In this document: piece by piece, positions 10,650 through 63,324 of the stretch
Layout: each line of letters begins with the position of its first letter
Position numbering within the stretch: position 1 is the stretch's first letter
Assembly (NCBI GenBank): GCA_963793725.1
Contig: CAWCAY010000002.1
Location: 183,196-247,195 of the forward strand
Length of the DNA: 64,000 bases
Source: an uncultured bacterium
Lineage (GTDB): Bacteria; JAUVQV01; CAWCAY01
Direction of reading: 5' to 3'
Program-made: the position numbers and the translations under genes
The notes under the pieces: generated by a model
What the model saw: the letters and a program-made list of their open reading frames with translations, nothing else
Databases searched by the model: none
What the model was told of the DNA's origin: nothing

Positions 10650-11100
10650 GAAGAGGTGTGAAAAAGGTTAACTCACCCCCGGTCTTCGACCGCCCCCTCT
10701 CTTCCGCGGAAGAGAGGGGGCCGGGGGGTGAGTTCTGATATGGATTTGCGGGGACACCCACCTGCAACGAAATGCTCCTTGATTAGGCGGTTGGCGATAA
10801 CGCGGTGAACCATCGCGTTTTCGCCAACCGGAGAATTGTCCATTTTCGTTGCAGGGATCCGGCAGAGCTTCTCTGCACTCTTATAAAAGCGCCGAGGCTT
10901 TTTCACATCGCTTTTGGAAGTTGTATGATTAAGGATGGGACGTAACCTCTTCCCTTTACGGGGGGTTAGGTCACGGCGGTATCCGTGCCGCCGTTGACAA
11001 CCAAGTTTTTCACACCTCATATCGAAGCAATGTGATATACCCGGAAGATCGTCTCAAGCCAAGACGCCAAGGACACAAGGGCTAGAAAGCAGCCCCATAG
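10650..11100. mobile_element. Cluster of tandem and nested MITE-like cassettes
   Basis: Ends GAAGAGGTGTGAAAAA (10650), TTTTTCACATCGCTT (10899), TTTTTCACACCTC (11006) and GAAGCAATGTGATA (11024); several internal hairpins. Confidence 0.65.
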
Positions 11101-11131
11101 CTTGCGTAGGATGGCCTGCTCCTGCAACAGC

Positions 11132-11165
11132 AAAAGGGCGCGATCCGTGAGGATCGCGCCCTGCT
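11132..11165 (-). terminator. Rho-independent terminator after rpsI
   Basis: AGGGCGCGATC-loop-GATCGCGCCCT hairpin with a T-tract on the minus strand. Confidence 0.75.
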
Positions 11166-11184
11166 TGTTCGGTGAAATTGCTGG

Positions 11185-11595
11185 TTACCGCTTGGAGAAC
11201 TGCGGCGCCTTCCGGGCTTTCTTCAGACCGTATTTACGGCGTTCCTTGGCCCGCGGATCCCTGGTCAGGAAACCCGCTTTCTTGAGCGGTGAACGGAACT
11301 CCGTATCCGCCAGCAACAGAGCCCTGGCTATGCCATGCCGCACCGCGCCGGCCTGGCCACTCACGCCGCCTCCCGCCACACTGGCCACCACGTCGTACTT
11401 GTCGGCCACCGCCACGACTTCGAGGGGCTGCCGCACGATCACTTCAAGCAGCCTGCGCCCGAAATAATCACCGACGATCTTACCGTTGACCGTGATCTTG
11501 CCCTGCCCGGAGATCACCCTGACCTTGGCCACCGCGGTCTTGCGGCGGCCCGTCCCGTAATACGTCAATTTCGCTGTCTTCTTTGCACGCGGCAT
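11185..11595 (-). CDS. rpsI: 30S ribosomal protein S9
   Basis: [11 protein letters not shown]...[19 protein letters not shown]. Confidence 0.98.
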
Positions 11596-11599
11596 ATCC

Positions 11600-12046
11600 T
11601 TACCTCCTGGCGCCTTGGGTTAGATCGTAGGTCTCCGGTTGCTGGGCGGCGTGCGGATGCTCGGCGCCTCGATAGACACGGAGCTTGCGGAGCATTTTTC
11701 GGCCAAGCGGGTTCTTGGGCAGCATTCCTTTGACGGCATGCGTCAAGGCCACCTCAGGACGATTGGCCAGCAGATCTCCATACTTGATCGCTTTGAGCCC
11801 GCCCGGGTACATGGAATGATGGTAGAGGAACTTTTTCTCCCGTTTCTTGCCCGTCACGACCACCTGGCCGACATTGATCACAATCACGTGATCCCCGCAA
11901 TCCACGCCCGGGGTGAACGTGGGCTTGTGCTTGCCGTGCAGGACGCTGGCAACAGCCGTGGCCAACCGGCCCAGGGTCTTTCCCTTGGCGTCAAACACAT
12001 ACCATTTTCGACCGACCTCCGCCGGCTTGGCCATGTACGTTTCCAT
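11600..12046 (-). CDS. rplM: 50S ribosomal protein L13
   Basis: [22 protein letters not shown] and GMLPKN motifs; GGAGGAGG RBS. Confidence 0.98.
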
Positions 12047-12122
12047 CGCCAACCTCCTCCAAGAACAGAACGCGAAGACCCGTCCGTCGTGGGTCGGGCC
12101 TGTTTTACGCGCGGACCACTCT

Positions 12123-12151
12123 ATTATAGCAAAGGGTCTGACGAGCGTCAA
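12123..12151 (-). promoter_or_regulatory. Sigma-A promoter of rplM-rpsI
   Basis: TTGACG-17 bp-TATAAT on the minus strand. Confidence 0.75.
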
Positions 12152-12275
12152 GGACTATGGGGGCTAAGTGGCCAGCATGACTCAATTGCCCCTGTAGTAT
12201 AGCATGAGGACCACTCGGCGTCCAGCCCAATACGCCTGACCTTTCCTGGCGGAGGGTCCGAGGATGTTGGTTCAG

Positions 12276-12518
12276 CTAGAACGTAACCGTGCGGACCGCG
12301 ACCCCCTCAATCTCCTCGAGCCGCTTGGCCAGGTCTCGCACCACGGCGTCCTCACTTTCAAGGGTCAACGTGATTAATCCCCGCCGCCGATCGGGGCTCG
12401 GAATACCGGCGCGCATCAGTATCTCCTCGCCGAATTCGCTGAGCACACCTTGGACTTTGGGCGAGAGGTCCTCCCGATGGTTTAGGGAGATGCCCATGAC
12501 CGTAGTTTTACCCGCCAC
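12276..12518 (-). CDS. TM1266-like small ACT/NikR-C-fold protein (iron-only hydrogenase regulator family)
   Basis: About 80 aa with the pattern VQ.VLSEFG..I..R.GIP...GLI.L...L..IEGV.V. Confidence 0.6.
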   Translation of the reverse strand: MAGKTTVMGISLNHREDLSPKVQGVLSEFGEEILMRAGIPSPDRRRGLITLTLESEDAVVRDLAKRLEEIEGVAVRTVTF

Positions 12519-12555
12519 TTGCCTCACCTCGGGAGTAGTATGTCCAATGGTCGGG

Positions 12556-12966
12556 TTACCGTGCGGTTCCGGTCATGGTCAGTTGGCCATGGCGCACGCC
12601 GCGCTGCGCGCGGAACAGGTCCGCCAGTCCCTGCAGACTGCGGGCTTCGCCCCGTACGACCATCACCTCGAGGCAGTGGTCTTCGTCTAGGTGGACGTGC
12701 AGAGAGGAAATTATCTCGCGGCAATGATCGTGGGCCAAGTCCGTCAGGTGTTCATCCAGTTCCCTCACCCGGTGGTCATAGACCAGGACAATGGCACCGA
12801 CTACTTCCGTACCTGCCTGCCAATCCTGCGAAACCAGTTGTTCGCGCATGAGGTCCCTGATGGCTTCGGACCGATTGGCATACCCCTTGCCCTCAACCAG
12901 CCGGTCGAAACGGGCTAACAAATCCCCTTCGACCGAAACCCCGAAACGAACCAACACCCAAGCCAC
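12556..12966 (-). CDS. nikR: Nickel-responsive regulator NikR
   Basis: RFGVS and NRSEAIRDL (ribbon-helix-helix); HVHLDEDHCLE nickel site. Confidence 0.92.
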   Translation of the reverse strand: MAWVLVRFGVSVEGDLLARFDRLVEGKGYANRSEAIRDLMREQLVSQDWQAGTEVVGAIVLVYDHRVRELDEHLTDLAHDHCREIISSLHVHLDEDHCLEVMVVRGEARSLQGLADLFRAQRGVRHGQLTMTGTAR

Positions 12967-13024
12967 CTCCCCGGTGAACGGCGGACGGCCGTCCGCCTGA
13001 CGACATCACCCGGCGGGGCCGGCG

Positions 13025-13231: not shown

Positions 13232-13237
13232 CCGCCG

Positions 13238-14289: not shown

Positions 14290-14353
14290 GTTGCCACCTC
14301 CATGCTTACCGCCAATCCCGGTTAAATCCCGGACTCTCGTTGTAGTGCTAGTG

Positions 14354-22317: not shown

Positions 22318-22363
22318 CCTTCCAACCTCCTCCAGTCTGCACCTGCGGACGCTCATCTCACCA

Positions 22364-22502
22364 CAAAACCGATTACTCGCGCAAAGACGCAAAGATCCGC
22401 CAAGAAGAGCTTCAAAGATTGTAGGCTATAGGGCTTTTCCTACACCTTTGCGTCCTTGGCGTCTTTGCGCGAGGCGATCTTTCGGGTTCTTTACATCGCT
22501 TC
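22364..22502. mobile_element. MITE-like cassette (CGCAAAGACGCAAAG cargo type), left end eroded
   Basis: CTCGCGCAAAGACGC...GCGTCTTTGCGCGAG inverted repeat; right end TTCTTTACATCGCTTC; similar to 63031-63180. Confidence 0.7.
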
Positions 22503-24278
22503 CAGTACCCCAAGGACATACTCGAGATTCTCGCGGGAATTCGCCTTGTCCGGGTAAATCTGCAGGGCGCTGCGATAGCACTGGGCCGCCCTTTCCAGCT
22601 CCCCTTGGTGCTGGAAGATGCACCCCAGGTTATGATAAGCCTCGGCGAATGCGGGGTTGAGGGAGAGCGCCCGGTCATATTCCTCAATGGCCCGGGCAAA
22701 CTCACCGCTCATGGTCAAGACCACGCCCATATCATAATGCGCCTTGGCCGAATCGGGTTTCATCATGACGTAGTTGGCCAAGAGCCGTTTGGCGCGCTCG
22801 TAGTCTCCCTGTTCAGCCAGGATGAGTCCGAGATTCAGATGAGAATCGGGCCAGTCCGGCTTGATCTCGATGGCTTTCTGGTAGTGGCGGGCCGCTTCTT
22901 CGGGCCTCCCTTGCTGGTACAGGAGGATGCCCATTACATGGTGCGGCAGATGATATTCAGGGCTGGTCGCCAGCCACTGCCTGGTAAAGACGAGGTCGTT
23001 ACGGAAGTAACGTGCACGGTTGATGGTGAAAACGGCGCAGATCGAGACCAGGATCAGGCCGGCACCCACGAGGATCCTCTTGGCGCGCTCCCTGGTCCAG
23101 ACACAGCCGGCCAGCCCGCCGGCAATCCCGATCACGGCTACCATGGGTAAAAAGACATAACGTTCTTCGAAGAACACATCCTGGGCGACGATGTTCGCCG
23201 TCGGCAGCATGGTGCAGATGAACCACCCAAGCCAGAACCAGGTCGTCCTGCGCCTGGCCGGCCAATGCCGCGCGGTCAAGATGGCGAGTAGGATAACGGC
23301 CAGACCGGCCAGAACGAGCCGCGGCCATTGGAGCCACGTGTCCACAGACATCGGTTCGTAAACCAGGGCGAAGAAGGGCGCGACAATCGATTGCAGCGCG
23401 TAGACCGGGCTCAGGAGCGGTATGGTCAGGTCGGTAAAACTATTGAGGTTCAGTTCGCGACCGCTGAACAAAGAGAGACGAACGAGGAGATAAACGGCAT
23501 AAACGGCCACGATGCCGCCGTAACGTCGAACCCATCCGGCAATGCTCCTTCCCGGGGAGTCTGCCGAGAGCTTGAGGAGATCAGCCAGGACCAAGAGGAC
23601 AATAACCACGACGGACTGCTCCTTGCTGAAGAGGGCCAATGCCAGCATGGACACTGCCGCGAGATGCCATTTCCAGCCCGACCGCAGGAACGCGTAAACC
23701 GTGGCAATGGTGAAGAGCCCGGGCAGGATGGTTTCCCTCCCCGAAGCGATCGGGTACACGCAGGAGGAGGCGATTGGGTGCACGGCATACAGTGCCGCCG
23801 CGAGCAGAGCCGGCGTGCGAGGAACGCCGAAGACGGGCAGGCGAAGTAGGGCATAAAGCGCTAAAGCGGTCAAGCCCATAAGGATGGCGTTGAGCAGGTG
23901 AAAAGGCCCGGGGTTATCGCCGTGCATCGTCTTCTGCAGGAGGAAGGTCATCCTGGCCACCGGGCGATAATATGGCAGGATGGGATCATGCGGCTCCGCA
24001 AAGACCCGGGCCACATCACTCAGAGAAGTCAGAGGGCTCTGCTTGTTGATAATGTTGTGGTCATCGTAGACGAACTCATTGCCGAGCGAAACGGAATAGA
24101 TCGTCACGATGAAAAGGAAAAGCGCGAGCGCGCCGCCGAGGCGTGGAAGGAGTCCGGTTGCATAGGACGGCTTTCTACCCGGGGATGGTCCGCCGCGCCC
24201 TGGCTTAGGCAAGCCCATCAACTCCTCATAAGGCGGGTGGTGATCGACCCAGAAAGAGTTCGGCAAGATCCGCGCCAA
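22491..24278 (-). CDS. TMTC-like GT-C protein (putative protein O-mannosyltransferase) with C-terminal TPRs
   Basis: FVYDD, YYRP, HP...V..I.GR, LFSKE and ERYVFLP motifs; about four TPR repeats. Confidence 0.8.
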   Translation of the reverse strand: MARILPNSFWVDHHPPYEELMGLPKPGRGGPSPGRKPSYATGLLPRLGGALALFLFIVTIYSVSLGNEFVYDDHNIINKQSPLTSLSDVARVFAEPHDPILPYYRPVARMTFLLQKTMHGDNPGPFHLLNAILMGLTALALYALLRLPVFGVPRTPALLAAALYAVHPIASSCVYPIASGRETILPGLFTIATVYAFLRSGWKWHLAAVSMLALALFSKEQSVVVIVLLVLADLLKLSADSPGRSIAGWVRRYGGIVAVYAVYLLVRLSLFSGRELNLNSFTDLTIPLLSPVYALQSIVAPFFALVYEPMSVDTWLQWPRLVLAGLAVILLAILTARHWPARRRTTWFWLGWFICTMLPTANIVAQDVFFEERYVFLPMVAVIGIAGGLAGCVWTRERAKRILVGAGLILVSICAVFTINRARYFRNDLVFTRQWLATSPEYHLPHHVMGILLYQQGRPEEAARHYQKAIEIKPDWPDSHLNLGLILAEQGDYERAKRLLANYVMMKPDSAKAHYDMGVVLTMSGEFARAIEEYDRALSLNPAFAEAYHNLGCIFQHQGELERAAQCYRSALQIYPDKANSRENLEYVLGVLEAM

Positions 24279-26479: not shown

Positions 26480-26640
26480 CCGGGATTGGATGAACCCGGT
26501 TCTTTTGCCATCGTAAGGGATTATCTCGAATGTGCCGCTGTATCCTCTGCAATTCTTCATGGCTATGGTTTATGTGCTCATGGTACCTGGATTGCCACAC
26601 AAATGAAATATCCCCTGCCAAATGGACAAACCTTTCCCCC
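26480..26640 (-). pseudogene. C-terminal remnant of a REP-associated tyrosine (RAYT/Y1 HUH) transposase
   Basis: FVWQSRYHEHI..HEELQRIQRHIRDNPLRW resembles WQ..Y.EHIIR...YI..NP.RW; the catalytic Tyr position is H; the N-terminal HUH motif is absent. Confidence 0.65.
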
Positions 26641-26699
26641 CCATCCATCGTCCATACTTCCAGAAACCACAAAAACAACCGGTAGGGAAGGTGGAAGAC

Positions 26700-27620
26700 A
26701 TGTCCCGTCGCCTCTCCCCCATTCGTCCTTTCGCCGCCCTCGTGCTATGCCTCGCCCTGGCCATTCCGGCCTTGGCCGGCGCCGCCGCCGAAAACAAGTT
26801 CCACCCCCCGCCCGGGGTAGAGTACCTCACCGGTGTCCAGTTCGGCCTGGGCGGCGGCCGGCCGCTCCGCATGGAGATCCTCCGGCCCCAGGCGGCTTCG
26901 GCCAAACCGCTGCCCGTCCTGGTCTTCGTGCACGGCGGCGGCTGGCGGAGCGGCGATCGCTTCGGCCACCTGCGCCAGCTGGCGCCCTTCGTGCAAAAGG
27001 GGTATCTCTGCGCCAGCATCGAGTACCGCCTGAGCGGCGAGGCGATCTTCCCCGCCCAGATCGAGGACTGCAAATGCGCCATCCGTTTCCTGCGCGCCCA
27101 GTGCAAGAAGTACAACCTCAATCCGGACAGGATCGGCGTCTGGGGCTCCTCGGCCGGCGGGCACCTCGTGGCCCTGCTGGGCACCTCGGGCGGCGTCGCG
27201 GAACTCGAGGGCACCGGCGGCTGGCCGGAGCAATCCAGCCGGGTCCAGGCCGTCTGCGACTGGTTCGGGCCGGCCGATCTGTTGAACAGTGAGGGACTAC
27301 TGGGCCGGATCCCGGGCGGGCCGGGCTCGCCCGAAGCCTTGCTCCTCGGCGGGCCGGTCGCCGAACGACAAGAGCTGGCCGCCATGGCCAGCCCCGTCAC
27401 GTATGTCTCCGCGGATGACCCGCCCTTCCTGATCATGCACGGCGATCGGGACAGGACGGTGCCGTTTCACCAAAGCGAACTCCTCCACGCGGCGCTGAAA
27501 AAAGCCGGTGTGGATGTGACCTTCATCCCAATCCCCGGCGCGGGACACGGATTCGGGCCATCGCCGGAGATCACGAGGGCCGTGGAGGAATTCTTCGCAA
27601 AACATCTGGAAGCGATGTAA
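26700..27620 (+). CDS. Exported alpha/beta hydrolase (esterase)
   Basis: HGGGW, GSSAGG and HGDRD..VP..GAGHG motifs; signal peptide. Confidence 0.9.
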   Translation: MSRRLSPIRPFAALVLCLALAIPALAGAAAENKFHPPPGVEYLTGVQFGLGGGRPLRMEILRPQAASAKPLPVLVFVHGGGWRSGDRFGHLRQLAPFVQKGYLCASIEYRLSGEAIFPAQIEDCKCAIRFLRAQCKKYNLNPDRIGVWGSSAGGHLVALLGTSGGVAELEGTGGWPEQSSRVQAVCDWFGPADLLNSEGLLGRIPGGPGSPEALLLGGPVAERQELAAMASPVTYVSADDPPFLIMHGDRDRTVPFHQSELLHAALKKAGVDVTFIPIPGAGHGFGPSPEITRAVEEFFAKHLEAM

Positions 27621-27747
27621 AAAGCATCAAGGTTGCCACGGCGGCTCAGAACCGCCGTGACCTAACCATCCCCTCCCGAAGCGGGAAGGGGAGCCAATGA
27701 GCAGTACCTGTTTTCGTACGCGTTCTCTGGAAACGGTGTGAAGAGCC
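27609..27747. mobile_element. MITE-like cassette (GTTGCCACGGCGG cargo type) plus the start of a second end
   Basis: Left end GAAGCGATGTAAAAA; cargo matches the reverse complement of about 10963-11002. Confidence 0.6.
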
Positions 27748-28602: not shown

Positions 28603-28832
28603 GAAGCGATGTGAAAAACATTGTCTCCCGCAGAGAGGGCGCGGAGAAGCACTGAAAGAAAAACCTGCTATATCAGCTTTCGTTCATTCCACCTCTGCGT
28701 CTCTGCGCTCGAGAGTAAAACGGGGTTTTTCACATCTCTTAGAAGCGGAGACGATCTCGAAGAACCTTTGAGTCCGTGCCGCCCTAGCCGGGGATGTTGC
28801 GGGGTCTGCCTGACAGAGTTTTCACACCTCTT
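28603..28832. mobile_element. Two tandem MITE-like cassettes
   Basis: TA-GAAGCGATGTGAAAAA...TTTTTCACATCTCT-TA-GAAGCGG...TTTTCACACCTCTT; the first cargo (CGCAGAG/CTCTGCG) resembles 63181-63324. Confidence 0.7.
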
Positions 28833-28849
28833 TTGGGTTCGGAAAAGGA

Positions 28850-28882
28850 AAAGGAGAGACGGCGTACCGTCTCTCCCTTTTT
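28850..28882 (-). terminator. Rho-independent terminator
   Basis: AAAAGGAGAGACGG-CGTA-CCGTCTCTCCCTTTT. Confidence 0.75.
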
Positions 28883-28896
28883 CGAGGCAATCTTCC

Positions 28897-29522
28897 TTAT
28901 CTTCCGATGAACTGTTGGGTCAGCATCTTGCCGTAGGGTCCGCCGTTAATCACGCCGATGCCGATGTGGGTAAAGCTCGCGTTCAGGATATTGGCCTGAT
29001 GGCCGGGGGAGTTCATCCAGGCCTGCATGGCGCCGGCTGCGGTCGAGTTACCCGCGATGTTCTCACCGGCCGTACGGTACGAGATGCCTGCCGCGCGCAT
29101 CTGGTCGAACGGGCTGCCCAGCCTGGGCGATTGGTGGCCGAAGTAGCCGTTCTGGATCATGTCGAGCGACTTGGCCCGGGCCGTCTGCACCAGACTGCTA
29201 TCGACCAGGAGCGATCCGAGTCCCACGTTTGCCCGTTGCACGTTGACCTGCTGGTAAATATAGCCCTCGTCCGCAGTTAGGGTGCCGGTGTTGGCCGGCG
29301 GCGGACTGGGCGGGGTGGGGTCGGCGTTGGCGGCTTGGGCTGCGGTACGGTCGGCGTGCCCGGCTGGGTTACCGGGTAGTAGATCCGCACGATCCGGTAA
29401 CCGGTTCCGGGGTTTACCACCCTGCTAGAGTAGCGGTAGTAGATGGTCTGGGCCATGGCCGGCGCGGCCATGGCGGTCAGGAGCCCGACGATGACCAAGA
29501 AACTGACGAAAACCTTACGCAT
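28897..29522 (-). CDS. Second secreted CAP domain protein (frameshift in the Pro-rich linker)
   Basis: YFGHQSP, AGENIAG and WMNSPGHQANIL motifs; signal peptide in the upstream frame. Confidence 0.85.
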
Positions 29523-29638: not shown

Positions 29639-30544
29639 TTATTGGGACAGAAACCTAGATCTACCTGCGCTTTTCTGCTGGAAGAGGAGTTCCGCCACAC
29701 GCCCGATATGCGCCGGCGTCGTGCCGCAACAGCCTCCGACCAACCCCGCGCCGGCATCGAGGCAGGCGGAGATCCCCCGGGCGAAAGCCTCCGGCGTCAT
29801 ATCAAAAACGGTTTGGCCGTCGACGAGCCTCGGTCGTCCGGCGTTAGGCTGAGCCATAATGGGAAGATAGACCGCCTCCCGCATGATGGCCACGATGGCC
29901 GCCGTCTCGTCCGGCGTCAGGTCACCGCAGTTGGCGCCCACGGCGGCAGCGCCGGCCTCCGCCAGGGCGATGGCTGAATCCCCGGCGGAATTGCCCATGA
30001 TGGTACGGCCGCCTTTATCCGTCGTCTGGAACGAGAGCGACGCCAGCACGGGGGAGTCCGCCGTATCCTTGCAGGCACGGAGGGCGCATAGGGCCTCGCG
30101 CAGGTCCATCATGGTCTCGATGATGAAACCGTCGACGCCCCCGGCGTGAAGGATCGCCGCCTGCTCCTTGAACGTCTCGTAGAACTGGGCCTCCGTATAC
30201 TCGCCGTAGGGTTCGAGCATCTGTCCGGTCGAGCTGATGTCGCCCAGAACGAACTGTTCAGGACCCGCCGCAGCCCTGGCCAGTCTGGCCCCGGCCAGAT
30301 TGACTTCTTTCACATCCACCCCGACCTTGTGCGTCTCGAGATAGATCCGGTTCATCGTCAAGGTGTTCGTGATCAGGAGATCGCAGCCGACGCCGGCGTA
30401 CCGCCGATGGATCGCCAGAACCTCGTCGGGATGGACCAGATTGTTCTGACCGCCCATCTCCAAGCCGGCCGCGGCGAGATTGGTGCCCATCGCGCCGTCT
30501 ATTAGGATTGGTGTTTTCCTCCCAATAAGCTCCGCCAAGGTCAT
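29639..30544 (-). CDS. Stand-alone homocysteine S-methyltransferase domain protein
   Basis: DGAMGT, IETM.D..E, GANC, PNAG.P and GGCCGTTP.HI motifs; GGAGG RBS. Confidence 0.9.
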   Translation of the reverse strand: MTLAELIGRKTPILIDGAMGTNLAAAGLEMGGQNNLVHPDEVLAIHRRYAGVGCDLLITNTLTMNRIYLETHKVGVDVKEVNLAGARLARAAAGPEQFVLGDISSTGQMLEPYGEYTEAQFYETFKEQAAILHAGGVDGFIIETMMDLREALCALRACKDTADSPVLASLSFQTTDKGGRTIMGNSAGDSAIALAEAGAAAVGANCGDLTPDETAAIVAIMREAVYLPIMAQPNAGRPRLVDGQTVFDMTPEAFARGISACLDAGAGLVGGCCGTTPAHIGRVAELLFQQKSAGRSRFLSQ

Positions 30545-30570
30545 TTGGCTATTCCCTCCAAATCGCGCTT

Positions 30571-32915
30571 TTATGGGATCCCCCATATCCTCACCGTCGC
30601 GTCCGCAGAACCCGAGGCGAGGAGGGATCCGTCCAGGGAGAACGCCACGGTGGTCACGTCGCCCTTGTGCCCCGCCAGGGTGCAGAGGAGTGTTCCATCC
30701 GGCCGCCAGAGCCGCACTGGAATCATCCCGGGCGCCCGTGGCCAGCAAGGTACCGCTCGGGGAAAAGGCCACACTGGTCGCCTCTTCCTCGTGTCCGGTC
30801 AGCTTGCGTAGGAGTGTCCCGTCCTCAACCCGCCATAGCCAGACCGCTCGGTCACCCGGGGTCGAAGCCAATAGGGAGCCATCCGGGGAGAAGGCGATAC
30901 CGGTCACGTCCCGGTAATGTCTGAGCGTCTCGAGGAGGGCCCCGTCCGAGACCCGCCACAACCTGACGGCATTATCCCGTGACCCTACCGCCAACAGGGT
31001 TCCGTCCGGGGAAAAGGCGACGCAGGTTGCGGCCAAAAAAGGTCTCCTGAAGGTGCGCAAGACCATCCCCTCACTGACCTGCCATAACCGGACGGTACCG
31101 TCGGCGGCGCCGGACGCCAGCAAGGTGCCGCTCGGGGAGAAGGCCAGACAGGTTACTTCCCTGGTATGGCCCTGCATTTCCCGGGGGAACCACCCCCCTC
31201 CATGCGCCAAACGTGAACCGCCCCTCCCTTCTCTCCCAGAGCGAAAAGGGATCCCTCGGGTGAGAAAGCGATACTAGTTCCGGGGCGGGTGAGAATGGGC
31301 GTGCCCGTTGCCAACGACCACAACTGAGCGTTACCATCAGCCAGCCGGCAGCCGAGGATCGCCCCCCGCGGGCCAAAGAGCAACTTGACCACGGCCGCGG
31401 CATATCCGGTCAGGGTGCGCCGCATTGCCAGGCGCCCGGCATTATCCGCGGTGATAGTGACGGGCAATGGCGGCTTTGTCGGTGACCCACCAGGATCGTG
31501 TACAACTTTGGGCTTGGGAACGGGCGTTTTCTCCTGGCCTACGGTGGGGCGGGGCCGGACGGTGGTTCGTGCTGGCGCCACGGAAGGCGTTGCCCCCACT
31601 GGCGTTGCTACGGGCCTTGGCGTGGGGGGCTCCGTTTTCCGTGCCGGTGGGCTAGCGCCGGGAGCCGGTGTCACACGCGGGCCGTGCACCGCCAGAACTT
31701 GGGTGGATGATGGTTCATCGCGCATGGTGGATTCTGGATGGAAGACTCTCCATGCCGCGGTTACGCCACACACGAGAGCCAGGGCGAGCAATGCGGTCCA
31801 TAGATAACGGATGCGGCGGGGCGGCGTCCCCGACACCCCGGTGCCCGTATCATGGGTCTTACGTCGGTCATGTGACAAGGCCATCGGAGCAACGGCGGAA
31901 ATGCTCCCGATGAGTCGCCCTGCTCCGCATCGCGGGCAGTTACGGAGGTGGCTGGAGAAATAGTGCCCCTTGCCGCATGTAACGAGGGCCTGTTCCGCCT
32001 GCTCCAATGCATGCTCCCAATCCCCGGGCGACGGACGTTGTGCCGGATTCCTGTACCCCGCCACGAAGCACTGGAGGACCAACTCGGCGAGCAGGGGATG
32101 GAGTTCACGCAGTGAGGGTGCGTCCGGAGGGAGGGAGGTAACCGAATGCCGGCTCCGAACGTAGGGAAAAGACCCATTGGAAATCTTCTCCTCGATGGTC
32201 GGCGGCTCCCCCTCCCCCAACCATCGGCAGCGATAGGGATGGTTCCCCTCCATAAGCAACTGAAAGATTAGAACGCCCAGGGCAAAACAGTCGTGTTCCG
32301 GACGGCGGAGGACGTCCCTGAAATCCTTCCCCTGCAATTCCGGCGGAGTGTACTCCGGCTTACCGACCGGACACGGGTAGACAACGATCTGTGCCTGCCC
32401 GTGTTCCTGCACCTGGAACGAGTCATTGTCGATTAGTGTGATTAGGGCGGCCGGGGTGACCAATACATTGCTCTCGTTGAGGTCACCTACCACATAGTCG
32501 CGGGCGTGGAGAGCCCCGAGGGCGATGGACAGGTTTCGTGCCGCGCGTTGCAGGTACACACGGTTAAAGCCGGGCAGCGTTTGTTCACGCAAACGCGGAT
32601 TGAAGACCTCCAGCATCAAGACGGCGTTCCTGATGCGCGGCATGAGGTAACCCACAAAACGGCCATTCTCATCGTAGAGTAGATCATCAGGCCAGGCCAA
32701 TGAGGGATGTCCTTCGGCGCGTGTGGGATCGGCCGCGGGATTGTTCCACATCCAGGCGAGTTTCCCCTCGTAGCCGGGAGCCGGCATGGGGGTATAGATC
32801 TTGGCCAGAGCGGACGGGCGGCCCTGCACTTCGTAGATGACCGCCTCGCCCCCCTGGGCGATCTCCACGCCCAGGCGGAGTTGCTTGTGCGCGGAATCAT
32901 ACAAGAGCATCATCA
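30571..32915 (-). CDS. YegI-like Ser/Thr kinase with Zn ribbon, TM helix, Pro/Thr linker and WD40 repeats (frameshifted)
   Basis: GGEA..Y, AKIY, GDLNESNVLV, IDNDSF and YTPPELQ; C..GH/CPRC; repeated GH..VT.VAFSP.G.LLASG..D..VRLW. Confidence 0.8.
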
Positions 32916-36441: not shown

Positions 36442-36468
36442 GAAAGGGGGCTCCTTGGAGCCCCCCTG
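36442..36468. terminator. Hairpin terminator
   Basis: GGGGGCTCC-TT-GGAGCCCCC. Confidence 0.6.
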
Positions 36469-36469
36469 A

Positions 36470-36618
36470 GAAAGAGCGACGAAAAATGGGCTACTCTCGC
36501 AAAATAACCGCCAAGAAGAGCACCAATAAACGCGAGCCACGGGGCGTCTCTGTGAATCCCTTGCGTCCTTGGCGTCTTGGCGCGACGATGTGATCTCCGC
36601 GGTACATACACGCCCTTA
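36470..36618. mobile_element. Degenerate MITE-like cassette abutting the paaK stop codon
   Basis: GAAAGAGCGACGAAAAA..TACTCTCGCAAA..CGCCAAGAAG...TTGCGTCCTTGGCGTCTTGGCGCG; aligns by eye to 63031-63180. Confidence 0.6.
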
Positions 36619-37923
36619 GATCTTGCGTTTGTCGATCACGCGTTTGGCCTTGCCCATGCTCCTCTCGATGCTCTTTGGTTCCACGAGGCGGACCTTGACG
36701 CCGATCCCGAGCAGGGTCTCGATGCGATCCTCGATGCGCTGCGTCAATTCCCCGAGGACCCTCAGACTGCCGACGAAGTAACGTTCCGGCACCTCCACGA
36801 GCACTTCGAGCGAGTCCAGGTAATCCACCCGATCCACGATCAATTGGTAGTGGGGCTCAACTTCCTCCATCTCCATGAGAACGCTCTCGATCTGCGACGG
36901 GAAGACATTGACCCCCCTGATGATTAGCATGTCGTCGGTACGGCCCAGTACCTTACGCATGCGTACGGTCGTTCGGCCGCAGGGACACGGGGAATAATCG
37001 AGGGACGTGATGTCCCTCGTCCGGTAACGCAGGATGGGCAAGGCCTCCTTGGTCAACGCCGTGAGAACCAACTCGCCCTCTTCACCCGGCCCCTTGACCT
37101 CCCCGGTTATCGGGTCGATGATTTCCGGGATGAAATGGTCCTCGGCAATGTGTTGGCCGTCACAGTGCGTGCATTCGCCGGCCACGCCCGGCCCGATTAT
37201 CTCCGAGAGCCCGTAATTGTCGGTGGCCAGGATCCCCCAGGCTTTGGCGATCTCGCGGCGCATGCTCTCGGACCATGGTTCGGCGCCAAAGAGACCGACG
37301 CGCAGCTTGAGATCCCCCGGCTTGAACCCCATCTCGCGGGCCACCTCCGCCATGTACAGCGCGTAGGATGGCGTGGAAACGAGCGCGGTCGTGCCGAAAT
37401 CCTTCATGATCCTGATCTGCCGTTCGGTGTTGCCGCTGGACACCGGGATGACCGTTGCGCCTATTCTCTCCATGCCGTAGTGCAGGCCGAACCCCCCGGT
37501 AAATAGGCCATAGCCGAAGGAGATCTGCACAACGTCGTCCGCGGTCACACCAGCGGCGGTAATGAAACGTGCCACCAGATGCGCCCAGGTTTCGAGGTCG
37601 CGCTTGGTGTAGCCGACCACCGTCGGGATACCCGTGGTCCCGGAGGACGAATGGACGCGGACGATCTCGCGCATCGGCACGGCAAACATCCCATAAGGGT
37701 AGTTATCGCGCAGATCGTCCTTGACCGTGAAAGGTAGCCTGACCAGGTCATTCAGTGTCCGGATACTTACTGGTTCAATCCCCGCCTTGTCAAACCGCCC
37801 GCGGTAAAAGGGCACACGCTCGTATGCCATGGCCACGGCCGCCTGCAGCCTTTTGCACTGCAGGTCGGCCATGGATGAACGGTCCAGACACTCAAAATCG
37901 GGGTCCCAGATTGAGACGGCCAT
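36616..37923 (-). CDS. paaK: Phenylacetate-CoA ligase family
   Basis: [28 protein letters not shown] and [11 protein letters not shown] motifs. Confidence 0.9.
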
Positions 37924-37950
37924 TTCTCTTACTCCTTCCTGAATCCGTGA

Positions 37951-39640
37951 CTACCGATTTGTACCAGGCAAAGCCCTGGTCACATCGCAAATGCCGATCT
38001 CGTATTTTGCCTGGCAGTTCAATGATGTCACGGATTCAGGTCCTTGGTTGCCGCGGTGGCGGCGAATGCCTTGTCGACCAAAGCCTTCTGGGGTACTGGC
38101 CGTCACCAGACTGACCAGCGCCACGACCAATAGGGAGGCCGCCATGGCCAACGTGCCGTACATGGGGGCGTCCGCCTTGGTCACACCGAAGTACCCGTAC
38201 GTGGCGCCAACGTAGCTGTATAAGGAGACGCACACGCCGATGACCATACCCGCCCAAACGGCCGGCCTGGTTACACGCTTCCAGAAGAGCCCCAGGACGT
38301 AGGGACCGAGGAAGGCGCCGGCAATGGTGCCCCAGGAATAAGACATCAGAGCCACGAGGAAGCTCGGGCCGCGCCAGGCCAGGTAGACCGAGAGCGCAAC
38401 GAAGACAACACAGAGGCCGCGCATGACCGCCATACTGGTGCGCTTCGTGATCCCGGGCCAGAGTGCGCCCTGCAAAAGGTCGATGGTAATAGCGGAACTG
38501 GAGACCAGTACCAGGGATGACACGGTGGACATGGTGGCCGAGAGCACGAGGATCAGGATAATCAAAAGAAGGAGTTTCGGGCAGGGTCCTCTTGAGCACC
38601 TGCGGGATAATCATCGTGTTCCCGTATTTCACGGGGTCCTGATTCTTCTCCGCGTCGTTTTTCATGCCCAGGTTGACGAGGGCACGGGCCTCGAGCGGAT
38701 CCGTCTGGGCCGCGGCGTAGTTCGGCGCCGTGGCGAACTGCTTATTCTCTTGAACCAGTGCCGGCCCGAAGAGGGATGTTGTCGATCCTACCAGGTAGGC
38801 CGCTCCGGCGATGACCAAACAAAAAATCGTCCCGATTACCATGGCGCGAAGGATCATTTTCTCGCTCTTGATCGCGTAAAACTTCTGCACCATCTGTGGC
38901 ATGCCCCAGACGCCGAAACTCGTCAGCGTGACGAGCCAGAGCACTTTTGGCATCGAGGCGGGGAACACTTTGACCAGCTCCGGAGAGATCCTGGCCAATC
39001 GGGGCAGGAACTGGCCAAATCCGCCGACGACCGGCGACCTAAAGACGAAACCGACCATGAGGACCGCACCGACCAGCATCACGAGGCCCTGGACAAAGTC
39101 GGTCAATGTAACCGCGAAATACCCTCCGAGGACAAGGTAGAAGGTGGTCAACGCCGCCATGCCGATCAGAGCGTAGAGGTATTCGATCCCGAAGATGGCC
39201 TGGAAAAGGTAGCTGAGGCCGGTATAGGCCGCGGCGGAATAGGGGATGAGGAAGATGAAGATAATCAAGGCACTCACGATCTTGAGGGCTTTGGAACCGT
39301 AGCGCGCCTCAAGAAACTCAGGCATGGTCATGACGCCCAATTGCCCCGTCATGATTCGCGTACGGCGACCGAGGACCAGCCATGGTAGGAGGCAGCCGAT
39401 AAAGGCGTTGCCGAGAGCGACCCAGAGAACCGGCAGGCCGAACGACCACCCCTGGCCACCCGCGTAACCAATGAAAAGAACCGCCGAAAAATAGGTCGTC
39501 CCGTAGGCAAAAGCGGAGATCCACGGACCGACCGTGCGGTTCCCCAGGAAGAAATCCTGAATGGTCTTGGTCTTGAGAGATGTTGTGATGCCGATCGCGA
39601 CCATGATCGCCACATAGACACCGAGCACAAAATAAAGCAT
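37951..39640 (-). CDS. Sodium:solute symporter (frameshift near 38575)
   Basis: FFLGNR.VGPW, GTTYFSAV.FIG.AG, WGMPQMVQKFY and SATMST motifs. Confidence 0.9.
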
Positions 39641-41784: not shown

Positions 41785-42048
41785 AATCTCCCCCCCGCGG
41801 TCTTGGTAGTGCGCCTGATTCCGTGAAATCATTGAGCCACCAGGCAAAATACGGGGGTTTGCATTGGTGTTTTACCTGGTACGAATCTGGTATTCACTGA
41901 TCAGGTAGTACATCCTATGTGCGTCCCAACCCTGTGCCGCCGGGCTCAAGGCAGGGGTCACGATCGCGAGGCGGAGGTATCAAGCGGGCCACGTTCGGGC
42001 AGATTTACCTGCGTAATCCCCGGCTAATCTCCCAGGGAGGCACAAGGC

Positions 42049-53537: not shown

Positions 53538-54751
53538 TTACATCAGACTGCTCACGTCGAGCATTGGCATGACGATGGCGATGACGATAAAGCCGACCAC
53601 TCCGCCCAACAGAACCATGATCATCGGCTCGATCAGCGAGGTCAGGCTCTCCACCGAGGTCGCCACCTCGGCGTCGTAAAAGTTCGCCACCTGGTTGAGC
53701 ATCTTTTCCAGCGCGCCCGTTTCCTCGCCGACGGCCACCATCTCGGTGAGCATGGGCGGGAAGATCCCGGTATCGGCCAGGGGACGCGCCATGCCCTGGC
53801 CCTGGCTGATGCTGACCCTGGCCTGGGAGATGGCCCGGGCGACGACCGCGTTCCCCACGGCCCGTTCCACGATCTCCAAGGAGGGCACGATGGAGACACC
53901 ACTCTCGATCAGGGTGCCGAAGGTCCGCGTAAACCGTGAGGCGGCTATCTTCTGTACCAGCGGGCCGAAGATCGGCAACCGGTAGACAAACCGGTCAATG
54001 GCGAGTTTGCCCTCGGGGGTCTTGCGCCATTGCAGGAGGAAGACGATAGACCCGACGGTCAATACGGGGAACGAGATCAGAAATACGGGCTCTTGACAAA
54101 ATCGCTCACGCCCACGACGAACCGGGTGATGGATGGGAGTTGTTGACCGCTCTCCGCAAAGACCTGGGCAAAGCGCGGAACGATAAAGGTAACCAGAAAA
54201 CCGGCCACCCCGATGACGACAGTGACGATCACCACCGGATAGGTCATGGCGCCGAGGATCTTGCGCCGGAGATTGTACTCCTTTTCCGTGTGGTCCGCCA
54301 GACGCTCGAAGACCGTGTCCAATTGGCCGCTGGTCTCGCCGGCCTCGACCATGTGCACGAACATCGCATTGAACGCCGCGGGGTGTTTACCGAGGGCGGT
54401 AGCCAGGGGCTGCCCGGCTTCGATGTCCTGCCTGACGAGTGCGAGGATCGCCTTGAGTTTGGGCGCACTCGTCTGCAAATGCAGTGTGCGCATGCAGATG
54501 ATCAGATTCAGGCCGGCGCGGATCATGACCGCCCATTGCCTGGTGAGGATGGCGATATCCCTGGGCTTAACCCCGCTAAGCAGGGAGGCCCGTTTGATCT
54601 GCATCCCGGCCTCCTCCCGCTGACGGAGCGCCGTGACGAACAGGCCCGCCTCGCGCAATTTGGCGGCGGCCAGCGACGGCGTGTCGGAATCCATGGTGCC
54701 GGTCGACACATTGCCCCCGCGGTCGCGGGCTTCGTAGACGAAAGTGGGCAC
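53538..54751 (-). CDS. pilC: PilC/GspF platform protein (frameshift near 54070)
   Basis: GETSGQLD, AMTYP, GEETGAL and LIEP motifs. Confidence 0.92.
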
Positions 54752-54818
54752 TGTTCTCACCTCCCCGGTGACAATCCCAACGGCATGTCCATACATTATT
54801 CGGACGGCGGGCCTGCTT

Positions 54819-59779: not shown

Positions 59780-59802
59780 CGTTCAACCCTCCCGGTGCAA
59801 AA

Positions 59803-60415: not shown

Positions 60416-60429
60416 GATTGCCCCCCCAA

Positions 60430-60942
60430 TCAATTGTCCCGTGGAACCATGATCGACTCGAGGACGAGGCTCCGAGTTCCCCAGACGATCGTCGCCGCCA
60501 CCTTGACCGCAGCGTTAGGCGCCACCTGGCCGCCGACCATATAGACGGTACCTTCCACGTTGGGGTCATTGGAGGTGGGGGCAAAGGACCCTGCGAGGTG
60601 ATTCGTACCGTCGATCACCTCGTCGGCCAGTAGGATCCTGCCCTGGGTGAAATTGATGGCCGTCGTATACGTGACGCCGTCTATGACATCCGGTGGAGCG
60701 AGGGCCGTATCGGCCAGCGCCTCGAGTGAACTCACGCGCACCTGCGCCCGCTGCATCTCCAGATACCTGACGGCCAAGCCGTTGGCCGTGGCCCGCTGGT
60801 TGACCAGATTGATGTCACGACGGGAGATCACGGTGATGGAGCCGACCAGCATCACCGCCACCAGGGACAGCAGGCCCAGGGCCATCGATACCTCGATCAG
60901 GCTCATCCCGCGATTGGCGCAGCTTCTCTTCATAACCATCAC
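60430..60942 (-). CDS. PilV-like minor pilin
   Basis: RG|MSLIEV; A..LA..YLE; V.ATIVW. Confidence 0.75.
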   Translation of the reverse strand: MMVMKRSCANRGMSLIEVSMALGLLSLVAVMLVGSITVISRRDINLVNQRATANGLAVRYLEMQRAQVRVSSLEALADTALAPPDVIDGVTYTTAINFTQGRILLADEVIDGTNHLAGSFAPTSNDPNVEGTVYMVGGQVAPNAAVKVAATIVWGTRSLVLESIMVPRDN

Positions 60943-60946
60943 CCGC

Positions 60947-61423
60947 CTACTCGACCCGGCTAAATCCGGTAGCCAATACCGTCACTCTTTTGACCACGCC
61001 CGGGGAGGTGCCGAACCTGACGGTGTTTGACGGGGTAGTCGCCGGGCTGAATGAGGACAGAGTCCCCCGGTAGTCAAAGACCACCGAGCCGGCCGTCGGC
61101 TCCATCGTGAGAGGCGGGCCGTATTTTTCGGCCAATTCTCCCCTTAGGATTTCTACGTCGGTCGTCCCGTTGTTATAGGTAACAATATAGTTGTCCATGG
61201 TGTAAGATACGGTGATCGTCGTACTGCGGACCAAGGCTTGTTCCCGCGCGAAACGCAGGTCCTGCACGAACTGGGTGGCGGCAAATCGCGCGCAGGAATG
61301 AGCTTTATATTGGACCCATGCGCCGTAGCCCAAAGTCAGCGCAACCCCCATGATGCCCAAGGTTATGACCATTTCGATCATGGTAAACCCGCGCATCGAT
61401 CTCTTTCTGTCAATCAGCGGCAT
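60947..61423 (-). CDS. FimT/FimU-like minor pilin
   Basis: RG|FTMIEM; DLRFAREQA; FDYRG. Confidence 0.8.
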   Translation of the reverse strand: MPLIDRKRSMRGFTMIEMVITLGIMGVALTLGYGAWVQYKAHSCARFAATQFVQDLRFAREQALVRSTTITVSYTMDNYIVTYNNGTTDVEILRGELAEKYGPPLTMEPTAGSVVFDYRGTLSSFSPATTPSNTVRFGTSPGVVKRVTVLATGFSRVE

Positions 61424-61748
61424 GTTACGTCACCCACTTTGCCTGTGGCTTTCCAGTTTCATATTACCGTAAAACGGTCCCCATGGCAAATCCGTGCAAT
61501 CCACCCCAAGTTACCCTCGATGCCACAAAAGGTGATACACCGTCGCGGTCTCAACGCCACGCACCCACGTTGCCGGACAAGCCCGGAATGACCTTCTTCC
61601 CGCAAAAGCACACCCACTTATTATATATATCGGTTACCGCATCGGTTTTGTTGACCCGCACTCAAGCAAGAAGGCGCCGAAATTCCGGCGCCTTGCGTTC
61701 AATCCCTGATTTCCAAAGTGGGTTGATCTCGCCCAAATCATGCCTGGT

Positions 61749-62863
61749 CTACTTGCCGAAAGCCTCCTTGACCCGGCCGAAGAACCCTTTGTCCTGTTCC
61801 TCGTCGATCGCCGCCAGACTGCGCAGTAGTTCACGCTGTTCCGCGGTGAGACGCGTCGGCGTCTTGACCTTGACCCGCACGAAGTGATCGCCGCGGCCGC
61901 TCCCGCGGAGATGAGTAATTCCCCGTCCGCGCAGACGAAAGACCGTGTCCGTCTGAGTTCCCTCGGGTATCTTCAACTCGGCCTCCCCATCCAAGGTGTC
62001 TACATGGATGGTCGTGCCCAAGGCAACCTGGGCGAAGGTCAAATCAACCTCGGTCTGGATATCGTCGCCGTCTCGCTTGAACAGACGATGGGGCTTGACA
62101 TAAAGATATACGTAAAGATCTCCGGACCCGCCCCCCCGCGCGCCGGCTTCACCCTCGCCGGTAACGCGCAGTCGTGACCCATTGTCCACTCCCGCCGGGA
62201 CTTTGACCTTTATTTTGCGCGTCCGCCTCACCCGGCCCCGTCCCTGGCACTCGGAGCAAGGGGTCTCGACCACCTTGCCCTCGCCTCCGCAACGGTCACA
62301 GGTTCGCACGTTGACAAAACGTCCAAAAGCGGTATTTTGCGCCACCTGGACCTGGCCGTTGCCCTTGCAGGCCGGGCAAGTCTGAATCGGGGTCCCGGGT
62401 TTGGCCCCATTGCCGTGGCAGGCCGGACAGAGTTCGGTCCGTGGAACCTCGACGGTCGTTTCGTGGCCAAAGGCGGCCTCCTCGAAACTTATCTCGAGAT
62501 CGTAGCGGAGATCCCCCCCCGTTGCGGGCCGTTCCGACGGCGCTGGCCGCCCCCTCCGAAGAACATGTCAAAGATGTCCCCGAAGCCCTCGGCCCCGCTA
62601 AAGTCAACCCCCCCCGCCCCGGCGCCAAAGCCGGGATCAGTGGCGGCATGGCCGAATCGATCGTAAGCCGCGCGCTTCTGGCTGTCGCTCAGGATCTCAT
62701 AGGCCTCGTTTATCTCCTTGAATTTCTCGTCGGCCTTGGGATCCTCCTTGTTCACATCGGGGTGAGACTGACGCGCAAGCCGCCGGTAGGCCTTCTTGAT
62801 CTCTTCCTCACTGGCCTGCCGATTAACGCCCAGGACCTCGTAATAATCTCGTTTATTGGCCAT
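61749..62863 (-). CDS. dnaJ: Chaperone DnaJ (frameshift near 62510)
   Basis: HPD J-domain, G/F region and CxxCxGxG repeats. Confidence 0.95.
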
Positions 62864-62883
62864 GCCGGACCTCTTTCCATCTT

Positions 62884-63324
62884 GGAAGACTGCAAGAACA
62901 TATTACTCGCGCAAAGACGCAAAGTTCGCCAAGAAGTTCTTCTACGCTACGTGATATTTGGCTTCGCTAAAGCCTCTGCGTTCTAGGCACCTTGGCGCGA
63001 GGCGATCTTCCGTTTATCGAATTGTCTTTAGAAGAACTGTGAAAAACCGGTTACTCGCGCAAAGACGCAAAGATTCGCCAAGAAGGGCATCAAGAATGCG
63101 CGCCATGGTGCTCTAGAAACCTTTGCGTTCTTGGCGGCCTTGGCGCGAGTCGATCTTCAGGGTTCTTCACATCGCTTTTAGAAGAGATGTGAAAAACTCA
63201 TTATCCCGCAGAGGCGCTGAGACGCGGAGAATGATGCCCCGGGAAGTCCCGGTAGAACTTGATTTGTCTTTTCCTCTGCGCCTCTGCGTTGCGAGATTGA
63301 TATTTTGGGCTTCTTACACCACTT
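62884..63324. mobile_element. Three head-to-tail ~150-bp MITE-like cassettes
   Basis: Units start at about 62884, 63031 and 63181, joined by TTTA-GAAG; best ends GAAGAGATGTGAAAAA and TTCTTCACATCGCTT. Confidence 0.75.

Follow-up and report, generated by a model that had tools for sequence, protein, structure and literature searches.

A short end sequence and its reverse complement recur between the genes of a 64,000-nucleotide stretch of contig C2 (hereafter the window), raising the question of whether they delimit a mobile element and, if so, of what kind. An earlier note on this DNA described a dispersed family of cassettes in which one terminal inverted repeat (TIR) forms a shell around several unrelated, REP-like hairpins, and proposed a hybrid DDE/HUH capture system unlike any named family.

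Origin of the repeat-bearing DNA

Contig C2 ends in ~83.5 kb of DNA from a second, Bacillota-like organism (organism B), wrongly joined to that of the host (organism A) at window position ~5958. The GC content falls at ~6000, from 67-70% on the left to ~61% on the right, and the first ~154 codons of pheT (3945-5999, minus strand) are missing. Because these codons, together with pheS, sit at the start of contig C11, which reads on into the window at ~5957, C2 must be mis-joined here. In addition, single-copy genes present in the tail occur a second time elsewhere in the assembly, the two copies being 39-53% identical. All of the repeats lie to the right of the mis-join; the family is indeed dispersed inside this foreign tail, but it is confined to it.

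Organism B represents a poorly sampled Bacillota-like lineage. The AroC proteins of its nearest relatives, which are short contigs, are at most 74% identical to its own; the best B-like AroC in a sample of 301 Planctomycetota genomes reached only 54-57% identity, none was present in the six genomes that constitute all of the assembly's own phylum, and five further genomes reached via loci gave a best AroC of 51%. Organism B is known here from the ~83.5 kb alone, and all counts for the repeat family rest on that tail. The tail, which bears ribosomal-protein, chaperone and pilus genes, is unfit for assessing the gene content or phylogeny of the genome to which it was assigned.

Units, ends and stacks

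The units are bounded by an inverted end of ~19 nt, T(A/G)RAAGNGRTGTGAAAAAC, and the end and its inverse were found at all six intergenic loci named in the earlier note, far above the shuffle expectation: the window contains GAAGMGRTGTGAAAAA five times with ≤1 mismatch, versus 0.01 expected from shuffles. At ≤2 mismatches, 12 matches were found in the whole 3,143,300-bp assembly, every one of them on C2, between 193,845 and 254,819. When 11 ends were combined into a 19-nt weight matrix, 13 sites in the 83.6-kb tail scored ≥16 bits, 11 of them training sites; the other 3.06 Mb gave two such sites. The orientation of the ends alternates inside every cluster, and the two ends of a unit are unequal, the left starting with GAAG and the right mostly with AAAG. 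The motif lacks both self-complementarity and a GTAG-type (GT[AG]G) head. A literature search with end-motif strings returned no relevant paper.

Twelve units or fragments occupy the six loci in the window, and a thirteenth lies 7.6 kb beyond it (Table 1). Seven units measure 139-155 bp and the others 92, ~105-107, 119 and 265 bp; a half unit and a solo end complete the set. The locus at 27609-27747 was present as described, but it comprises one unit (E5) plus the solo end.

Table 1. Positions of the mis-join and of the repeat units (window coordinates unless a contig is named)
Feature	Position	Strand	Description
Assembly mis-join	5950..5965	.	basis: GC step, pheT split, second gene copies
E1	10650..10914	.	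265 bp; good ends on both sides (27.4 + 28.9 bits)
E2	10917..11021	.	group-3 interior (CGGCGG hairpin, GGTTAGGTCAC, C-rich hairpin); left end decayed
E3	11024..11100	.	half unit: octamer-type right arm + loop, reverse orientation
E4	22349..22502	.	octamer-hairpin unit (CGCAAAG/CGCCAAG); left end decayed; fold z -3.5
E5	27609..27727	.	group-3 unit; right end decayed; fold z -3.4
Solo left end (GAAACGGTGTGAAGAGCC)	27730..27747	+	17.4 bits; adjoins E5 via TG
E6	28603..28739	.	octamer-hairpin unit, CGCAGAG; ends 34.1 + 25.0 bits; fold z -4.2
E7	28742..28834	.	92 bp; left end weak, right end good (24.4 bits); fold z -0.4
E8	36468..36617	.	decayed octamer-hairpin unit; fold no better than shuffles
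E9	62885..63028	.	octamer-hairpin unit, ends decayed; first of three in the dnaK-dnaJ spacer
E10	63031..63178	.	best-kept octamer-hairpin unit; ends 29.1 + 30.6 bits; fold -58.8 kcal/mol, z -4.0
E11	63181..63325	.	octamer-hairpin unit, CGCAGAG; left end 34.1, right end 13.9 bits; fold z -2.2
Seventh locus	C2:254,804-254,958		outside the window

At six junctions, paired units meet within 2 nt. The joining dinucleotide is TA at three junctions (E10 and E11, for example, have one TA in common) and TG at two, including that between E1 and E2, so that stacking through TA or TG, as previously described, holds for five of the six; the remaining junction is TC. The stacks mix types: the singleton E1 is followed by the group-3 unit E2 and the octamer unit E3, and E9 and E10 (CGCAAAG) are followed by E11 (CGCAGAG). 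Such mixed abutting stacks point to defined element ends and argue against simple tandem duplication. Six of eight right flanks are common to the next unit; E6 and E10 have TA on both flanks, and E5 has TG on both. Among the five right flanks free of a neighbouring unit (TG, GA, CA, AG-or-TA and AC), no more than two are T-purine, and the unit flanks showed no clear target duplication.

The earlier placement of most units at gene 3′ ends was borne out, five of the seven loci lying between convergent 3′ ends and two between tandem genes. The right end of E4 encodes the last codons and stop (LEAM*) of a TPR gene (22491-24278, minus strand), and the left end of E5 encodes the LEAM* of an esterase gene (26622-27620, plus strand), whose homologues stop 1-10 residues past a conserved ..FFDKHL; read in frame, the end motif encodes Glu-Ala-Met-stop, and it terminates these two unrelated genes. 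The stop codon of a paaK-like gene (36616-37923, minus strand) lies on the right boundary of E8, and E9, E10 and E11 occupy the whole dnaK-dnaJ spacer.

The 92 ORFs scanned in the tail (~83.5 kb of organism B) yielded no transposase of any type, and no RAYT was seen near the repeats. Across the whole assembly (77% complete), Y1_Tnp (PF01797) matched only on the organism-A contigs C6 and C7, DDE_3 and DDE_Tnp_1 gave sub-threshold matches on C4 only, and ISL3 and PF05635 gave no match. These scans revealed no autonomous insertion sequence with the same ends, and the proposed hybrid capture system is not upheld; the hairpins, with neither a GTAG-type head nor a RAYT nearby, are not REPs. The ORFs overlapping units (10673-11020, which overlaps E1, and 28621-29280) had no Pfam match, the loci, E1 among them, matched no Rfam family at the gathering score or at E values up to 0.5-1, and E6 had no blastn match in a plasmid collection.

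Interiors and the octamer hairpin in other organisms

The four interiors previously named are all where they had been placed, but they are not all unrelated: the CGCAAAG and CGCAGAG interiors have a common architecture, are 75-79% alike over their full length and are variants of one element. The interiors fall into two multi-copy groups and two singletons (E1 and E7); the solo end has no interior. Seven of the 13 units (the half unit E3, E4, E6, E8, E9, E10 and E11) carry a tandem-octamer hairpin. They form one superfamily, CGCAAAG/CGCCAAG or CGCAGAG, in which two facing arms of tandem 7-9-nt units begin with CTCGCGC, and interior types 1 and 2 keep identical asymmetric spacers. E10 matches E4 at 119/144 positions, E9 at 112/141 and E8 at 107/136 (z 21), E6 matches E11 at 100/128, and the reverse complement of E3 matches E4 at 61/75 (z 15.3) and E10 at 58/72. 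Three units carry the group-3 module, a CGGCGG hairpin, GTGACCTAACC and a C-rich hairpin; E2 (reverse complement) and E5 are identical at 79/101 positions (z 8.3). Inside E1 lie two hairpins, one nested and C-rich (10673-10732) and the other long (10770-10860); the interior of E7 has no good match among the other units.

Of ten units folded, five have far better predicted folds than their shuffles (z -3.4 to -4.2), a sixth does so less markedly (z -2.2), and four no longer fold; the unit ends of E6, E10 and E12 pair with each other in the predicted structures. As the copies are only 75-83% alike and 4/10 no longer fold, there is no sign of recent movement.

The octamer hairpin also occurs far outside organism B. 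The exact 19-mer CTCGCGCAAAGACGCMAAG was found at at least 123 loci in GTDB species genomes from many phyla, and the records listed include cyanobacteria, Planctomycetota, Verrucomicrobiota, Nitrospirota, Bacteroidota, Gammaproteobacteria, Binatia, Chloroflexota and Acidobacteriota. These hairpins resemble the seven units here in their CGCAAAG/CGCCAAG/CGCAGAG arms and CTCGCGC start, but lack the GAAGNGATGTG end: among the matches listed from four Planctomycetota genomes, none starts before query position 13, and none of the ten metagenome loci that hold a 23-nt left-arm string has the end motif. Because the commonest interior occurs alone in many phyla without the end, we consider the end and the hairpin to be separable modules. 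The end's inner portion (GAAAAACC..TTAC), however, also occurs in the octamer-hairpin repeats of a Pirellulales genome (G002), so the 'end' is in part inherited together with the hairpin. A literature search with octamer strings found no paper; the nearest published relatives are presumably the cyanobacterial STRR repeats, and we know of no enzyme for tandem-octamer hairpins.

Competing readings of the family

The reading that we favour, at about even confidence, is that the units are decayed members of a MITE-like family of small, modular, palindromic non-coding repeats in organism B, with BOX elements as the nearest match in design. It builds on the repetition, inverted ends, sharp abutting boundaries, gene-end position, hairpin folding and age of the copies described above. 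Like prokaryotic MITEs, the units are shorter than 500 bp (92-265 bp), non-coding and bounded by terminal inverted repeats. A design of this kind is already on record for the BOX elements of Streptococcus (boxA - boxB(n) - boxC; boxE/boxF in S. suis), which PMC3049150 describes as small non-coding Firmicute repeats with conserved terminal modules, variable inner modules and predicted stem-loops, clustered with other repeats near gene ends. The comparison is one of architecture, and the units differ in having a terminal module of only ~19 nt and, as inner modules, whole unrelated hairpins, one of them cross-phylum. RUP/IS630-Spn1 and the Correia MITEs are also similar, being intergenic, 90-270 bp long, beside other repeats and endowed with inverted ends and a whole-unit hairpin; the units differ from them in their asymmetric ends (GAAG vs AAAG), and no parent insertion sequence, proven duplication or insertion polymorphism was found. 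IS630 and Correia elements duplicate TA. The RUP TIR resembles that of IS630-Spn1, and RUP inserts preferentially at other elements, according to PMC3049150.

We infer that such a family would have spread by transposition. A trans-acting enzyme encoded elsewhere in organism B would recognise the ends, and units would insert at T-purine (probably TA) sites, both in stop codons and at the flank of a resident unit, insertion at the latter building mixed head-to-tail stacks. Since the end in frame gives Glu-Ala-Met-stop, landing in a gene's last codons would be tolerated. The interiors may have diverged via nesting or recombination of hairpin modules.

Alternatively, there may be no separate shell, the 19-nt end being a lineage-specific outer stem of the cross-phylum octamer hairpin and the non-octamer units core-replaced derivatives. 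Seven of the 13 units do have octamer arms, with the same asymmetric spacers retained in types 1 and 2; 137 distinct copies from many phyla have an A-rich tract (40-53% A) at -10..-4 of the octamer arm and T-G/T-T at -3..-1; and in G002 conserved, lineage-specific sequence flanks the arms on the outside and has GAAAACC..ATTAC in common with the units here. The G002 flanks, however, are not inverted repeats of one another, the hairpins listed from the four Planctomycetota genomes and the ten metagenome copies are without the end, and the full 19-nt end also brackets the octamer-free units E1, E2, E5, E7 and E12, leaving this explanation doubtful. The strict alternation of the motifs in clusters and the folding of whole units as long, hairpin-forming doublets recall REP/BIME/REPIN systems, as presented in PMC2817692 and PMC3116915, in which case an HUH (RAYT-type) or other single-strand DNA enzyme would recognise the end, and the clusters would be BIMEs. 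We regard this as quite improbable, given that the motif is neither a palindromic REP unit nor headed by GTAG, that no RAYT lies in the tail and Y1_Tnp only on the other organism's contigs, and that the interiors are far more diverse than REP spacers.

The units might instead be host-functional RNA or DNA modules (mRNA 3′ stabilisers, terminators or operator pairs) spread by recombination rather than as selfish DNA. This would suit the five loci between convergent 3′ ends, the predicted stable hairpins, the A-run/T-run flanks, which resemble bidirectional terminators, and the dnaK-dnaJ spacer, in which relative expression could depend on a hairpin. However, the T-runs fall within the stem or ~10 nt past it, unlike those of intrinsic terminators, 4/10 units are decayed, the mixed stacks and solo ends resemble debris, and no Rfam family was matched even at the relaxed E values, so that we hold this view to be very unlikely. 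T-runs inside stems also led us to reject a simple intrinsic terminator. The consensus of integron attC sites is RYYYAAC/GTTRRRY, and an attC reading was rejected by eye, since the ends GAAAAAC/GTTTTTC do not fit it; a CRP-type operator reading was rejected too, its half-sites facing the wrong way compared with the consensus, with TCACA..TGTGA at junctions.

Within the favoured MITE-like, BOX-like reading, the earlier picture of a TIR shell around different hairpins survives as to the inverted end, varied interiors, sharp ends and stacking, but two of its four cargos are one element. Its stronger form, which we think unlikely, is that a transposon-type shell with 19-nt inverted ends and a built-in, in-frame stop serves as the local vehicle of the octamer hairpin and at least one other module in an unsampled Bacillota lineage, homing to T-purine flanks of copies already in place. 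If so, two unrelated selfish hairpin DNAs would travel nested and build mixed stacks; and a moving shell would show a second mobile system carrying and multiplying the widespread tandem-octamer hairpins, and would contribute a further family of BOX-like modular repeats, from a deep Bacillota lineage. Only two public runs matched, with 5-8% of the sampled words; they gave short near-identical contigs, in whose covered parts no joint skips a whole unit and no empty site was seen; one public-run contig carries the 27651-27705 module with dissimilar sequence on either side.

Distribution of the terminal motif and origin of the contig tail

The six loci with shared ends and four named interiors that the earlier note had described were all present when the sequence was read at each of them. 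The end motif GAAGMGRTGTGAAAAA has five matches in the window at no more than one mismatch, against 0.01 expected from shuffles, and when the whole assembly (3,143,300 bases in 11 contigs) was searched at up to two mismatches, all 12 occurrences lay on C2, the contig that contains the window, between 193,845 and 254,819 (the window itself is C2:183,196-247,195). Likewise, TGTGAAAAA (seven occurrences) and CGCAAAGACGCAAAG (three) were found exclusively on C2. A 19-nt weight matrix made from 11 ends, applied with a cut-off of at least 16 bits, gave 13 hits within the terminal 83.6 kb of C2 and 2 across the other 3.06 Mb; 11 of these 13 are the training sites themselves, and the remaining ones fall at the same loci. 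The units and the other features discussed here are listed in the table.

Positions of repeat units and other features (window coordinates unless a contig or locus is named)
Feature	Position	Remark
E1	10650..10914	singleton
E2	10917..11021	CGGCGG-hairpin interior
E3	11024..11100	
E4	22349..22502	CGCAAAG type
E5	27609..27727	CGGCGG-hairpin interior
Solo end	27730..27747	
E6	28603..28739	CGCAGAG type
E7	28742..28834	singleton
E8	36468..36617	CGCAAAG type
E9	62885..63028	CGCAAAG type
E10	63031..63178	CGCAAAG type
E11	63181..63325	CGCAGAG type
E12	C2:254,804-254,958	further unit, past the window; CGGCGG-hairpin interior
pheT	3945-5999	minus strand
TPR gene	22491-24278	minus strand
Esterase gene	26622-27620	plus strand
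WD40 fusion ORF	29639-31210	
Hairpin-forming stretch	37939-38040	upstream of paaK-like gene
Its second copy	41814-41900	upstream of SipL-like ORF
T2SS-F/pilC-like gene	53538-54796	two adjacent ORFs
dnaJ	61749-62863	two adjacent ORFs
phoH	locus L152:11549-12528	two adjacent ORFs
Cpn60-family gene	L151:2029-4653 = C2:249,029-251,653	

Apart from a few local dips, the GC content of C2 is mostly 0.66-0.72 over the first ~188 kb and then 0.585-0.638 to the contig end, the shift falling at ~6000 within the window. Among the genes of the low-GC tail are rpsI, rplM, efp, aroB, aroC, dnaK and dnaJ, as well as type IV pilus genes. Contigs C5, C6 and C7 hold second copies, at 39-53% identity, of rpsI, rplM, efp, aroB, aroC, pepP and lipB. 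The start of pheT falls inside its B3/4 region. The gene's first 154 codons (...SHGGILIL) lie with pheS at the very start of contig C11 (C11:1-1207), and the pheT frame from C11 resumes in C2 at window ~5957 (..AADDAPVGTPL), showing that C11 is what really adjoins the high-GC part. C2 is a chimera with its joint at window 5950-5965, and the sequence from ~5958 to the contig end (~83.5 kb, 61% GC) comes from a second organism, organism B; it is because the contig is a chimera that the repeat family is confined to one stretch. This mis-join is the most useful hard result of the analysis. Quality ratings for the assembly are 77% completeness and 4.5% contamination, and the collection contains six genomes of its phylum.

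Organism B reads as Bacillota-like. Its gene order includes phoH - 7TM-HD - dgkA - cdd - era, hrcA .. grpE - dnaK - dnaJ and queA - tgt - yajC - secDF, together with SpoIID, SipL and DUF1256/YyaC, an arrangement that we take to be of Bacillota type, judged against the gene order of B. subtilis. Its AroC shares at most 74% identity with short contigs and 67% with a protein named 'Firmicutes/Bacillota bacterium'. In the heat-shock operon a Cpn60-family gene has hrcA and grpE as its immediate neighbours, and no groES was seen beside it. Three genes, dnaJ, the T2SS-F/pilC-like gene and phoH, are each split into two adjacent ORFs, which could be assembly frameshift errors or real breaks.

Unit architecture and interior groups

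Thirteen units or fragments occupy seven loci, and in every cluster the ends found by the weight matrix alternate in orientation. Seven units measure 139-155 bp and the others 92, 107, 119 and 265 bp; the set is completed by one half unit and one solo end. At six junctions two units meet within 2 nt, through TA in three cases (E6|E7, E9|E10 and E10|E11), TG in two and TC in one; the stacks combine different types and are therefore not tandem duplications. When ten units were folded, five were far more stable than shuffles (z -3.4 to -4.2) and E11 reached z -2.2; E2, E7, E8 and E9 folded no better than shuffles.

The interiors had been described as unrelated. Several distinct kinds do exist, but the CGCAAAG and CGCAGAG types are related, both in the arm alignment and over the whole unit. 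An alignment of 13 arms gives units of the two types one common plan, consisting of the end, a spacer (short in the left arm and long in the right), CTC(G/C)CGC and then the octamers. Unit pairs were compared over their whole length (identical/aligned positions and z), both within types (E4-E10, 119/144, z 38.1; E4-E9, 106/129, z 27.5; E9-E10, 112/141, z 19.7; E8-E10, 107/136, z 21; E6-E11, 100/128, z 21) and across them, with rc the reverse complement (E4-E6rc, 100/126, z 10; E6-E10rc, 99/124, z 11.8; E10-E11, 100/133, z 9.0). The two types therefore form one superfamily, within which the octamers of each arm vary at a single base. E2, E5 and E12 make up a second group (E2rc-E5, 79/101, z 8.3; E5-E12, 83/111, z 9), and E1 and E7 are singletons. 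At 75-83% identity, the copies are old.

The octamer hairpin in other phyla

The 19-mer CTCGCGCAAAGACGCMAAG occurs at at least 123 loci in GTDB species genomes, and the matches listed include records named as cyanobacteria, Planctomycetota, Verrucomicrobiota, Nitrospirota, Bacteroidota, Gammaproteobacteria, Binatia, Chloroflexota, Acidobacteriota, Myxococcota and others. These copies are tandem-octamer hairpins with unrelated flanks, and the octamer hairpin is a cross-phylum repeat. E10 has 6, 38, 18 and 27 matches in four Planctomycetota genomes; among the matches listed there, none starts before query position 13, which leaves the outer half of the end uncovered in all of them. The end motif was found at none of the ten metagenome loci carrying the 23-nt left-arm string. 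A literature text search returned no match for the octamer strings and no relevant match for the end-motif strings.

The earlier separation of end from interior was correct, and interiors lacking octamers are likewise enclosed by the complete end. The boundary between shell and cargo is blurred by two observations: in 137 distinct copies an A-rich tract precedes the arm (40-53% A at -10..-4) with T-G/T-T at -3..-1, and in a Pirellulales genome (G002) the hairpin lies inside a larger lineage-specific repeat whose left flank has GAAAACC..ATTAC in common with the units here, the two flanks of that repeat not being inverted repeats of each other. On account of this A-rich arm flank and common left flank, the inner part of the 19-nt end belongs with the hairpin, and the outer GAAGNGATGTG is special to organism B.

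In the Pirellulales loci (L155-L174), a repeat at least 250 nt long has the CGCAAAG hairpin as its core, a conserved left flank in two subfamilies and a conserved GCGGCCGAAGGCCGC hairpin on the right. Three metagenome loci (L140, L146 and L148) are the same locus by their flanks; L140 has an octamer hairpin with a plain loop, whereas L146 and L148 have a second, unrelated repeat nested in theirs, providing a natural presence/absence pair for nesting.

Indications of insertion, enzymes and related repeat families

Read in frame, the end encodes Glu-Ala-Met-stop, and LEAM* inside the end motif closes both the TPR gene and the esterase gene. Eighteen esterase homologues stop 1-10 residues past the conserved ..FF-x-x-HL, and none of the 18 has the EAM ending. 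The stop of the paaK-like gene falls on the E8 boundary. Public runs hold only traces of the sampled sequence words; on one run contig the 27651-27705 module is set between flanks unlike those here and represents a further copy elsewhere. TA stands on both sides of E6 and of E10. Right flanks are mostly common to the next unit, the unshared ones being TG, GA, CA, AG-or-TA and AC, and a target duplication is not demonstrable from the unit flanks.

A hybrid DDE/HUH capture system, as the earlier note had proposed, was not demonstrated: no transposase domain was found in the 92 tail ORFs, and in assembly-wide scans Y1_Tnp was confined to C6 and C7, DDE_3 and DDE_Tnp_1 gave nothing beyond sub-threshold matches on C4, and PF05635 and ISL3 had no match. 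No Rfam family matches the repeat loci. In size, terminal inverted repeats and copy number the units agree with MITEs, whose general properties are taken from PMC10969869; from REP/RAYT elements the family differs in those features that could be checked. The closest design is that of the BOX elements of Firmicutes. According to PMC3049150, these repeats have variable inner modules enclosed by conserved modules at the ends (boxA/boxC, or boxE/boxF in S. suis), form stem-loops and occur in clusters with RUP and SPRITE. The loci are a real, old, modular MITE-like family of the second organism.

Upstream of the paaK-like gene lies a hairpin-forming stretch of ~100 nt that recurs 3.8 kb away in inverted orientation (40 nt at 88% complementary); an Rfam search at E up to 1 did not match it. 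The pair might represent a common leader or mark the two ends of a 3.9-kb segment with a symporter gene and tRNA-Arg. Elsewhere in the window, one ORF fuses WD40 repeats to a homocysteine S-methyltransferase domain and adjoins a kinase-like ORF of 643 aa.
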